A DNA stretch of 64,000 bases, from positions 1,312,001 through 1,376,000 of the forward strand of contig CP084167.1 in assembly GCA_021513715.1 (NCBI GenBank), read 5' to 3'. Numbering within the stretch: position 1 is the first letter of the stretch; the number at the start of each line of letters is the position of its first letter. A program made the translations under genes and the position numbers. Positions 11,389-63,425 of this stretch are shown in pieces. The notes beneath the pieces were generated by a model. That model worked only from the letters and a program-made list of their open reading frames with translations. It searched no databases and was not told where the DNA came from. Source of the DNA: Candidatus Heimdallarchaeum endolithica. Lineage in GTDB: Archaea; Asgardarchaeota; Heimdallarchaeia; Heimdallarchaeales; Heimdallarchaeaceae.

Positions 11389-12401
11389 ATGTTAATCTTC
11401 TTTTTTTGAATAAAAACCTTATTGAATTGCAAAATTTTTTTATTCTTACTTTTAAATTTATTTTTAGGGAGAGCGTATTCTGCGCAATTTTAGTTGTTGA
11501 AGTATTTGTCCTAAACTTGAAGGAAATGCCTTTTGCTCTTTCATAAATAAGAATAGGAAACTAGAAACAAATCTCCCTAAGAATGAGATTCCTAATCCAA
11601 TAGTTAAAGCTAGTTCTATCCCATAACTTATTTTCAAATAATCGACCAGATAACCAGAAACTAATGAACCAAAAAACAAGAATAATCCTGTTATCATATT
11701 ATATATTCCAAAATATATTCCTCCTTCTCTTTCTGGAGCAATATCTAACAAATAAGCTTGTACACTAGGCATTCCTAAAGTTACTAGAGAAGAGACAATA
11801 AAATGGATAATATATAGTTGCCATACTGAACTAGCAAATATATACAACAATGGAAAAGTTGCCATTATTATTCGGCTAAAGAAAATCATCTTTGTTCTTC
11901 CAACATTATCACTGATTTTTGCCCCAATATTGATAAATAACAAAGTAGTAACAGAAAATAATATGTTTAATATTGCAATCTCTAAAGCACTAGCTTTAAG
12001 TATTATTACTTGCTTTATAGGGAAAAGAGGCCAAGCAAAAGACCAAAAGAAAGAATAGATCATTGAAAAGAAAACAAAGTTGCGGAAAGGTTTATTTTTA
12101 TAGGAAAGACTAAAGCTTTCTTTCAATTTCCTTGAAACAGGTTGGTCTTCTTTTTTAATTTTCTTCAAAGGTTCTTCAATTGCAATAAAAGGTAGGACAC
12201 CTATTGCAGACAATGCTATTCCCAAAACTACTGGAATAAGAATATATTTCTGATAATCTATATCTCCGAAAACTAAAGTTAAAACTATCCCTGTAAAGAA
12301 TGTAGCAATCATGCTACCAAAAGCGTTATACCAAAAAACTCTACTACTTAACTTCGCTCTAACTCTTGGGGGAAACAACTCATTTTGCAACACTCCCCAT
12401 G

Positions 12402-12776
12402 AGATACTTTTTTACGTAATAAACTAAATTTTTAGTTTGTGGAGTTATCAGACCAATAACAACCTGAAACACATTTGCAAAAATAAAGAATACATACACG
12501 ATATTAGGGAGTGTCACAACTTTTCAGCTATCTTTATATATTTAATTCTAATTTATCTAGTGTCTTGAGCTAGATGCTTAAAGACGTAGGTTTCACTCCT
12601 ACGACACCCGGTCTTCCCTTTGGGAGTTATGAGTGCCCGGGATAAGGAGATGAACCCCTTAGAGAACTTAATTAAGACTGTGTCTTTCATGTTCTCTTAA
12701 GCCAGTCTTCACAACTTTCGCTAAGTTTGTTGATTGGTTGGGGAGAGTCCTGAAGAAATTACGTAAAATTTCAACT
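12402..12776. mobile_element. Non-autonomous 375-bp element (CATR-element), copy 1
   Basis: CATG at both 12398-12401 and 12777-12780. Imperfect 19-bp TIR AGATACTTTTTTACGTAAT / AGTTGAAATTTTACGTAAT (14/19, perfect inner 11 bp). Homologous to 41208-41576. No transposase. Confidence 0.93.
12551..12776 (+). ncRNA. Putative structured RNA inside CATR-element copy 1 (boundaries approximate)
   Basis: Successive stems ATCTAG/CTAGAT, CGTAGG/CCTACG, CCCGG..TCCC/GGGA..CCGGG, GAGAAC..AAGAC/GTCTT..GTTCTC, AGCCAGTC/GATTGGTT. G-U pairs in the last stem favour the + strand. Only 4 differences from copy 2. Confidence 0.55.
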
Positions 12777-13257
12777 CATGAAGAGACACCCAAGCTTCCA
12801 AACAAATTCACTAAAGCCACAATTATGATAATTGATATAGGAGACTTAACCCAATATAAGAAAATATATGGTATCCCCCAAGATACTGTGCTTATTACAA
12901 TAAAAGGTATTCTCCTACGGAGTATGTCACTCATTCTACCAAATATGGGATTTAGAAAAGTTAACAACAAATTTGCTATACTTTGCAACCACCCTAGATC
13001 ACTCCCACTTGCATTCATATTTCTTATAGCGATCATTGACACAAATGGTCCCACAAGCCCTTGCGAAACACTTATAGCTATAGAACGAGAGTAAAGAGCA
13101 AGTTTCTCCTTTTGTCCAATTGTCCCATTCTCATCTAAAATTTCATTTTCTTCTTCTGTGATATCTTCGTTGCCAGATAAAGTTCTCTCGTTCATAGTTT
13201 TCTAATAACGAAAAAAAAAACCAATCATAAATATTATTATTGGACTCTAATTATTTT

Positions 13258-41171: not shown

Positions 41172-41207
41172 TCCTTCCTTTTTTTAATAAAAAAAAGAAA
41201 TTACATA

Positions 41208-41576
41208 AGATACTTTTTATGTAAAAAACTAAATTTTTAGTTTGTGGGGATATTAGGCCAATAACAACCAGAACACATTTGCATTAATAAAGAATTCACG
41301 ATATTGGGGAGTGTCACAACTTTTCCGCTGTCTTTATACATTCAATTCTCATTTATCTAGTGTCTTGAGCTAGATGCTTAAAGACGTAGGTTTCATTCCT
41401 ACGACACCCGGTCTTCCCTGTGGGAGTTATGAGTGCCCGGGATCAGGAGATGAACCCCTTAGAGAACTTAATTAAGACTGTGTCTTTCATGTTCTCTTAA
41501 GCCAGTCTTCACAACTTTCGCTAAGTTTGTTGATTGGTTGGGTAGAGTCCTGAAGAAATTACGTAAAATTTCAACT
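41208..41576. mobile_element. Non-autonomous 369-bp CATR-element, copy 2
   Basis: CATA at both 41204-41207 and 41577-41580. Same ends as copy 1. Inserted at the last sense codon of the gene at 41571-42227. Confidence 0.93.
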
Positions 41577-42227
41577 CATATCTTCAACATCTAATAGAAA
41601 GACAGCAATAATATTAACAATCAGAACTATTTTTTGTGTTAAAGGCACTGAATAGTCTGGAATAGAGACCCCTACACGATCAAGGATAAATGTTAGTATA
41701 TGTAGAATCACTACTGCAAAGACAATAAAAACGAAAACTACATCAAAGCTTATATGTATCTTTCCTCTGTGCTTATCTTCTTTTCTCATTCTAAAGAATC
41801 TAAGAGCTTGACAATCAAAATCTAATCCCCCAAAACTTATTACAAAAGTAAAAGCCCCGATATAATGAAGGAAGTACAGACTAGAATGATCATAAGGGAT
41901 AGCTATTCCTGCTGCACCAATTGAGAGAATTAGTGTCCATGTAGCTTTTCTAAATCGATAAGTAAGCTCTTCTGTGACCAAGTAATCGATAAATATCGAG
42001 AATGAAATAACAGAAATAAGACTAAAACCTATAGTCATTATCAAAGAAGAGATACTATTTGAAATACCTGTTTCACTATTGATTCCTCCAAGATTGCTTA
42101 TTGCCTCGTTAAAGAAATCATAAGGTTCAGGATAGAAAAACCATGCTAAACCAATAGTAACAATAATTACTATGGCTATAGCCCAAATCAACCAACGAAC
42201 TATTTTTTGCTTATTCATAGAATTCAT
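41571..42227 (-). CDS. Multi-pass membrane protein (DUF998-like); stop codon now supplied by the element
   Basis: ISNLG motif, several TMs, H..GA. Original end was ...EDM-TAA (TAA at 41201-41203); now ...EDMS-TGA. Confidence 0.75.
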   Translation of the reverse strand: MNSMNKQKIVRWLIWAIAIVIIVTIGLAWFFYPEPYDFFNEAISNLGGINSETGISNSISSLIMTIGFSLISVISFSIFIDYLVTEELTYRFRKATWTLILSIGAAGIAIPYDHSSLYFLHYIGAFTFVISFGGLDFDCQALRFFRMRKEDKHRGKIHISFDVVFVFIVFAVVILHILTFILDRVGVSIPDYSVPLTQKIVLIVNIIAVFLLDVEDMS

Positions 42228-63119: not shown

Positions 63120-63425
63120 ATGAGCGAAAAAAAAATTGTTTTAACAGGTTTTGAACCCTTTGGCGGATCTAAAGTAAACCCTACTGCTAAATTATGAGTT
63201 GAAATTTTACTTAATTTCTTCAGGACTCTCCCCAACCAATCAACAAACTTAGCGAAAGTTGTGAAGACTGGCTTAAGAGAACATGTCCCTTCTTTACCAG
63301 AACAAGTATTAGAAAAAAGGCTTCCTTCAATGTCATTCGAATTAATTGAAAAAGGAATTAAAGTAGCTATTAAAACTATTATTATGGAATTAAAAAATGT
63401 AGAGAATGAAAATTTAATAAAATAA
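63120..63425 (+). pseudogene. pcp: Pyroglutamyl-peptidase I remnant (insertion plus deletion)
   Basis: N-terminus MSEKKIVLTGFEPFGGSKVNPTAKL (63120-63194) and C-terminus HVPSLPEQV..PSM (63282-63425); the middle is replaced by an element fragment. Confidence 0.9.
63197..63285. mobile_element. Truncated CATR-element, copy 3 (inverted relative to copies 1 and 2)
   Basis: 89 bp matching the reverse complement of 12688-12776 with 1 mismatch; preceded by TATG (63193-63196); ends at the element's internal CATG. Confidence 0.92.

Follow-up and report, generated by a model that had tools for sequence, protein, structure and literature searches.

What is an insertion element that carries no protein gene, recurs within a single 64,000-nucleotide stretch of DNA (the window, in what follows) and conserves its right part far better than its left? 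The original prediction took it for more than a passive MITE, namely a non-autonomous carrier of a structured RNA mobilised in trans, and offered both IS1111-type bridge or seekRNAs and the omegaRNA loci of TnpB and Fanzor as analogies. We find it likely that the element derives from a tnpB insertion element and has lost the gene, keeping the left end, a TATA promoter, an omegaRNA scaffold and the right end, and there is little doubt that the conserved right part is an omegaRNA scaffold that belongs with a clade of Asgard TnpBs.

The three window copies were re-found at the predicted places and their limits fixed from AT to AT. Copy 1 (12399–12779, + strand) is a full element of 381 bp that splits in two an MFS transporter gene (11464–13195, − strand); at this locus in the sister genome the MFS gene is intact and the element is absent. 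Copy 2 (41205–41579, + strand), also full, measures 375 bp, has its RNA part at 41361–41579 and is located just before the stop codon of an open reading frame at 41571–42227 (− strand). Copy 3 (63194–63284, − strand) is a 91-bp unit that runs from an internal CATG to the right end; its internal CATG is joined to a host CATG, and the pyroglutamyl peptidase gene at this site has lost ~425 bp. No copy contains a protein gene, and empty orthologous sites exist, so the element is mobile. BLAST searches, which had been proposed for the genome and its relatives, gave 25 matches (18 full length and 7 partial) in the Ca. Heimdallarchaeum endolithica genome, one closed contig of 3,326,783 bases, and at least 11 copies in the 3.08-Mb genome of the sister species Ca. 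H. aukensis, while a DNA-level search of 59 other relatives yielded no convincing copy. Many of the copies are 95–99% identical.

Comparison of the two full window copies bears out the predicted asymmetry, with exactly four differences to the right of 12553 (at 12596, 12620, 12644 and 12743) and 25 differing alignment columns to its left. Mean identity in an alignment of 28 copies, taken from two species and from metagenomes, is 0.83 for the left end, 0.70 for the spacer, 0.84 for the promoter region, 0.90 for the RNA part and 0.97 for the right end. Because the same gradient runs through all 28 copies, the lopsided conservation belongs to the family and is not an accident of one pair. The poorly conserved spacer (12444–12523, + strand) is deleted in some copies.

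The omegaRNA scaffold

The 219-nt scaffold (12561–12779, + strand) shares homology with Asgard tnpB elements at their 3′ end. The tnpB 3′ regions of other genera match the conserved part block by block, in the same order and down to the terminal AACTCAT, with nhmmer E-values reaching 3e-6 among tnpB elements from related genera. Trained solely on the 3′ ends of tnpB elements of other genera, a covariance model (R1) matched both full window copies over all 289 positions with 48.4 and 45 bits (E ~1e-14, a rough value from a short calibration), the next match scoring 10.3 bits. The same model found all 18 full copies genome-wide and did not detect the resident tnpB ends of the H. endolithica genome. 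In the opposite direction, the reverse model (R2) matched tnpB-linked and gene-less RNAs in 10 genomes of other genera and gave weaker matches to the resident tnpB ends (E 3e-6 and 9e-4). The RNAs of the resident TnpBs are only distant homologues of the element scaffold, with the architecture shared. Rfam returned only a chance match (E 7.6), and judged by sequence comparison the scaffold is a new omegaRNA family. With this homology and these models, the description as a non-autonomous carrier of a structured RNA holds, and of the analogies offered the omegaRNA locus was the right one.

How such an element can arise is visible in other genomes, where the RNA-only elements of G002, G016, G017 and G026 are plain internal deletions comprising the tnpB left end, a TATA box and the scaffold start. 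The window copy has a TATA box, TTTATATA, at 12533–12540 (+ strand), 28 nt upstream of the scaffold start, where it would serve as promoter. Nearly all gene-less copies carry this box 26–28 nt before the scaffold start, it is absent there from tnpB-linked copies, and the spacing is also kept in the separately derived RNA-only elements; among the sequence evidence, this recurrent spacing speaks most strongly for transcription of the RNA. The left end resembles a resident tnpB fragment over ~38 nt, whereas the scaffold is closer to those of other genera. No parent tnpB element with exactly this scaffold was found in the genome, in the relatives or by a right-end search of metagenomes, where the exact right-end pattern occurs at eight loci, all of them gene-less copies or rearrangements. 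Two candidates for a closer parent, P0032 and P0035, were rejected, their RNAs scoring below those of genus g2.

The right part folds better than shuffled sequences on the + strand (z −3.08, 0/200) and more weakly on the − strand (z −1.75), and the left part folds no better than shuffles (z +0.47). Of the five stem-loops originally proposed, the structured nature of the right part stands, and the arrangement differs in part: the comparative structure includes a pseudoknot and a nested three-way junction. The 5′ strand of the pseudoknot, AUGAGU (12629–12634, + strand), is a bulge of stem P3, pairs with the terminal ACUCAU and is invariant in the 28 copies (168/168 cells unchanged). Relatives have AUAAGU/ACUUAU and AUGAUU/AAUCAU instead, and compensation is seen in L037 and in resident tnpB elements; a pseudoknot to the scaffold 3′ end is the conserved feature of TnpB guide RNAs (PMC10711439). 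The nested domain P4-P5-(P6,P7) occupies 12644–12752 (+ strand). Its stems P4 and P5 swap sequence between groups with pairing kept, and the conserved loop between them, GAUGA by (A/U)GAG, resembles a kink-turn, the internal loop at 12649–12654 facing 12743–12747.

Within the family, the number of extra alleles per column is 0.49 at paired positions, 0.94 at unpaired positions and 1.93 in the spacer. Two-sided compensation is rare here (3 cells), and among variant pair types those that preserve pairing are as frequent as those that disrupt it (27 to 27). Because two-sided changes within the family are so few, the covariation case is made by the cross-genus comparison, in which related sequences are not independent. 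The covariance analysis that had been suggested delivered homology and compensation between genera, and only rare two-sided changes within the family.

Resident TnpB nucleases and the predicted cycle

The TnpBs of this clade keep D241, E399 and D433, with a glutamate six residues before the zinc finger; E399 is invariant and RuvC-I reads DLG. At least seven resident copies are intact (one lies at genome positions 2982806–2984248) and keep the D-E-D set with the shifted glutamate, a position that has been tied to IS607 TnpBs and Fanzors (PMC10711439). In our tree the Heimdallarchaeaceae TnpBs group together (91/88) beside a Thorarchaeota branch, and this sister branch bears the GTTCACTCA motif, named for aCas1-associated TnpBs (PMC10691335). 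At L162:4586–9688 (−), at L163:4955–9751 (−) and at 23 of the 79 tnpB loci, the sister tnpB of Thorarchaeota stands head to head with the gene for a protein of 1600–1700 aa that has no Pfam or PDB match, the outer flanks varying. By our reading of this protein, the conserved E98, N118, H188 and D195/D198 resemble the Cas1 active site and residues 386–423 a PD-(D/E)XK nuclease, and the head-to-head pair is probably the aCas1-TnpB system of PMC10691335. The H. endolithica genome contained no homologue of the large protein and no aCas1 gene (best profile E 0.02, over a short match). A gene for a 907-aa HerA-like ATPase frequently precedes the tnpB element in genus g4 (L095, L101, L107, L142, L039), and several tnpB copies elsewhere carry part of the 3′ end of that gene, which suggests loosely chosen left ends.

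For the gene-less element, transcription would proceed from near 12561 through the right end into the flank, which would then serve as the guide. The predicted guide (12780–12797, + strand), placed by analogy to PMC10711439, would match the empty site; no second clear target for it was found in the genome. The left junction C-AT (12398–12400, + strand) combines the AT target core with the C of the left flank and is predicted to be the TAM that the partner TnpB recognises. Supplied from another locus of the genome, a TnpB would bind the RNA and, after excision, cut the empty site at CAT plus the guide match, whereupon repair from the sister chromosome would restore the element. Such a cut-and-restore cycle has been shown for IS605 and IS607 systems, and cutting of the empty site would account for selection on the RNA and on the C to the left of AT. 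On balance we lean towards an RNA that still works with a resident TnpB.

The strongest competitor, to which we give appreciable but clearly lesser weight, holds that the parent TnpB has been lost from the lineage and that the element, still moving by its ends, carries an orphan scaffold that guides nothing. It draws on the fact that the scaffold has its closest relatives in the tnpB elements of other genera, on the failure of R1 at the resident tnpB ends and on the pair-breaking changes in several copies. The pseudoknot is nevertheless unchanged in old and young copies of two species, including its internal strand, which plays no part in forming a DNA end; the TATA box has held its distance while the spacer sequence has decayed; and the resident RNAs have the same architecture. 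These points speak against an orphan scaffold.

Junctions, ends and the search for a mobiliser

Empty orthologous sites carry one single AT. The left flank is GAT at two independent sites (L009/L068 and L011), right flanks of CATT and CATC also occur, and a second gene-less family in the genome likewise ends in GAT, which leaves AT as the only shared junction sequence. Insertion is therefore not always at CATR, as had been thought, and the supposed true duplication of 4 bp does not survive either, given the single AT in the empty sites and a 4-bp match that fails in 7 of 26 copies. The further claim that the R varies together on both sides reflects a real bias. Among the 26 copies of this element family, to which alone the flank statistics refer (pooled values were set aside, rows from the T1850 and Tg2 loci being off by one), the base after AT is equal in the left tip and the right flank in 19, against 11.8 expected (p 0.002); the bias at this base is real, no 4-bp duplication underlies it, and a 2-nt exchange does not account for it. 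Tabulating the flanks of the 26 copies, as originally recommended, revealed sites that are not random, with a target bias C-AT-G that is stricter on the left (C in 24/26, right G in 14/26; p 0.004); genome-wide, only ~15% of AT sites are preceded by C. C-AT-G is all that the flanks of these copies have in common, and they show no longer programmed target.

The left end (12401–12443, + strand) consists of a variable 7-nt tip followed by the subterminal motif TTTTACGTAA (12410–12419), which is common to resident tnpB elements. The right end (12755–12779, + strand) contains the inverse subterminal motif (12758–12768) and the terminal ACTCAT, at once DNA junction and 3′ strand of the pseudoknot. 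The predicted 11-bp subterminal core is present as TTTTACGTAAT at 12410–12420, with its inverse at 12758–12768. Younger copies only have a second short palindrome after the left subterminal motif, formed by AAACTAAA and TTTAGTTT (12416–12438 in the window). Both ends obey one mirrored grammar of AT, 7–9 variable bases and TTTT plus a short motif; the subterminal motifs lie at equal distance from the two ends and are tandem in some tnpB copies. The same grammar bounds ~15 resident elements that carry only tnpB. It also bounds the second gene-less family (genome 699974–700327 and five more copies, L030; ~355 bp), the last 156 nt of which are 80% identical to the 3′ end of a resident 445-aa tnpB element, so that this family too is probably an omegaRNA carrier. 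The tnpB elements at genome positions 1464618–1466406 and 2688068–2689554 encode distantly related TnpBs and have the same subterminal TGTACAA motif, from which it follows that lineages have swapped ends and nuclease cargo. Internal AT sites are also where rearrangements break. Four 91-bp units arose independently, and the three besides copy 3 share its starting point, the internal CATG. In one copy from a metagenome the stretch from an internal AT to the right-end AT is inverted (L072), and another copy is fused at that AT to the end of a different family (L017).

We searched for the enzyme that moves these ends. No IS607 tnpA exceeded the cut-off in either Heimdallarchaeum genome, no serine recombinase was matched within 4 kb of the 79 related tnpB loci, and the IS607 loci of relatives carry distant TnpBs. 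A PATE of the IS200/IS605 kind was considered and rejected: AT stands at both junctions, and the only Y1 tnpA in the genome belongs to an IS200/IS605 element (L024:1390–3470 (−)) whose ends are unrelated, and a copy of the gene-less element interrupts this tnpA close to its start. The genome has one tyrosine recombinase and two stand-alone small serine recombinases with the catalytic domain first (L025:5229–5951 (−) and L062:1201–1950 (−); genome positions 316728–317450 and about 405350–406100). Of the 30 genomes of the family, 28 keep these two enzymes, at ~75% and ~45% identity, and they are absent from the other families searched; no element ends were found around them, and the additional paralogues that relatives have do not lie near tnpB. 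That these enzymes co-occur with the TnpB clade reflects kinship and was discarded as evidence, and a single-sequence structure model for one of the two reached a pLDDT of just 52 and was left unused. Other abundant IS families are represented at genome positions 488783–489831, 2651891–2652920, 780102–780871 and 2932226–2933481 (~30, 25, 9 and 3 full copies, respectively), several transposase frames of other IS families are broken, and a 125-bp MITE (1681107–1681231) has 16 copies.

Our best guess for the movement is IS607-like serine recombination, in which a serine recombinase would act in trans on the subterminal motifs and exchange strands over the AT dinucleotide, as in IS607; a mobiliser of this kind is somewhat favoured by our estimate. 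A bolder proposal, which we regard as speculative, is that the AT-core elements, RNA-only and tnpB-only alike, form a transposon class without a transposase of its own that is moved by a host enzyme, for example a stand-alone serine recombinase, and that the RNA-only copies would be ~20 dispersed guides loaded in trans and possibly stabilised by L7Ae via the kink-turn.

It is unlikely, to about the same degree, that a DDE transposase duplicates AT in CATG much as IS630 does TA in CTAG, a reading that would leave the omegaRNA assignment unchanged. Symmetric ends and a palindromic target bias would suit it, TnpBs linked to DDE enzymes with inverted ends have been reported (PMC10691335), and empty sites do not distinguish a 2-bp duplication from an exchange over a 2-bp core. 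The terminal 7 nt, however, vary among near-identical copies while the subterminal motifs are fixed, the ends of the resident DDE families examined are unrelated to those of the element, and the precise joins at internal AT sites would fit one-ended recombination better. An IS110/IS1111 element whose bridge or seekRNA guides a DEDD recombinase shares with our element the subterminal inverted repeats, the short core and the internal loops, but is highly improbable: the DEDD IS110 domain (PF01548) was found neither in the H. endolithica genome nor in five relatives with such elements, the homology of the RNA lies with the right ends of tnpB elements, and the flanks have only C-AT-G in common, so this half of the original analogy is abandoned. 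Equally improbable is a passive MITE with a right part conserved by recent gene conversion, which the 95–99% identity of many copies might suggest and which is contradicted both by a gradient that follows pairing across 28 copies from two species and metagenomes and by homology of the RNA region across genera, as the original prediction had anticipated in seeing more than a passive MITE. Serine recombination of a gene-less tnpB derivative remains our preferred account.

Relation to known TnpB systems

Gene-less omegaRNA elements have already been described (PMC10691335; PMC10055086); the kind of element is thus known, and the RNA itself is a modest result. What it adds is a new scaffold for which CAT is the predicted TAM, together with intact candidate partner nucleases that have the shifted glutamate and are of a type related to Fanzors; the lineage is one near eukaryotes. 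Some 40 elements of the closed genome have moved recently and follow this end grammar, and no transposase matches them; should a host recombinase be their mobiliser, TnpB systems would have a novel route of spread. Genome structure is affected as well, since the elements split genes and cause deletions and inversions at AT sites. No account of these CATG elements turned up in our literature searches.

Standalone omegaRNA loci and PATE-like elements likewise have no open reading frame and keep both tnpB ends with the omegaRNA; they too need TnpB and a transposase in trans and occur in multiple copies beside tnpB-bearing relatives. PATEs, however, have IS200/IS605 hairpin ends and are moved by Y1 enzymes, whereas the element described here has symmetric subterminal inverted repeats and an AT core. 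Fanzor2 elements with TIRs and IS630-linked TnpBs (PMC10711439, PMC10691335) resemble it in the RNA-guided nuclease, the inverted ends and the junction bases within the scaffold; they encode or are tied to DDE transposases, of which none was found here, and the Fanzor RuvC-I is DPG where that of this clade is DLG.

The likeness to IS607 (ISXfa1, IS1535, CboIStron; PMC10711439, PMC6188088, 10.1101/2023.11.20.567912) extends to insertion at a dinucleotide, subterminal motifs, tolerant tips, a shifted-glutamate TnpB and an omegaRNA pseudoknot that includes terminal bases. IS607 ends are described as asymmetric and GG-bounded, whereas the core here is AT and the ends are mirrored at equal distance; IS607 has tnpA, and no tnpA lies beside any tnpB of this clade. 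Because the tnpA test fails, we do not file the element under IS607, although it would work like an IS607 derivative. To the Cas1H-Asgard aCas1-TnpBs (PMC10691335) the connection runs through the Thorarchaeota sister clade, which shares both their motif and a large-protein partner; the Heimdallarchaeaceae branch has AT-core inverted ends in place of the 1600–1700-aa protein.
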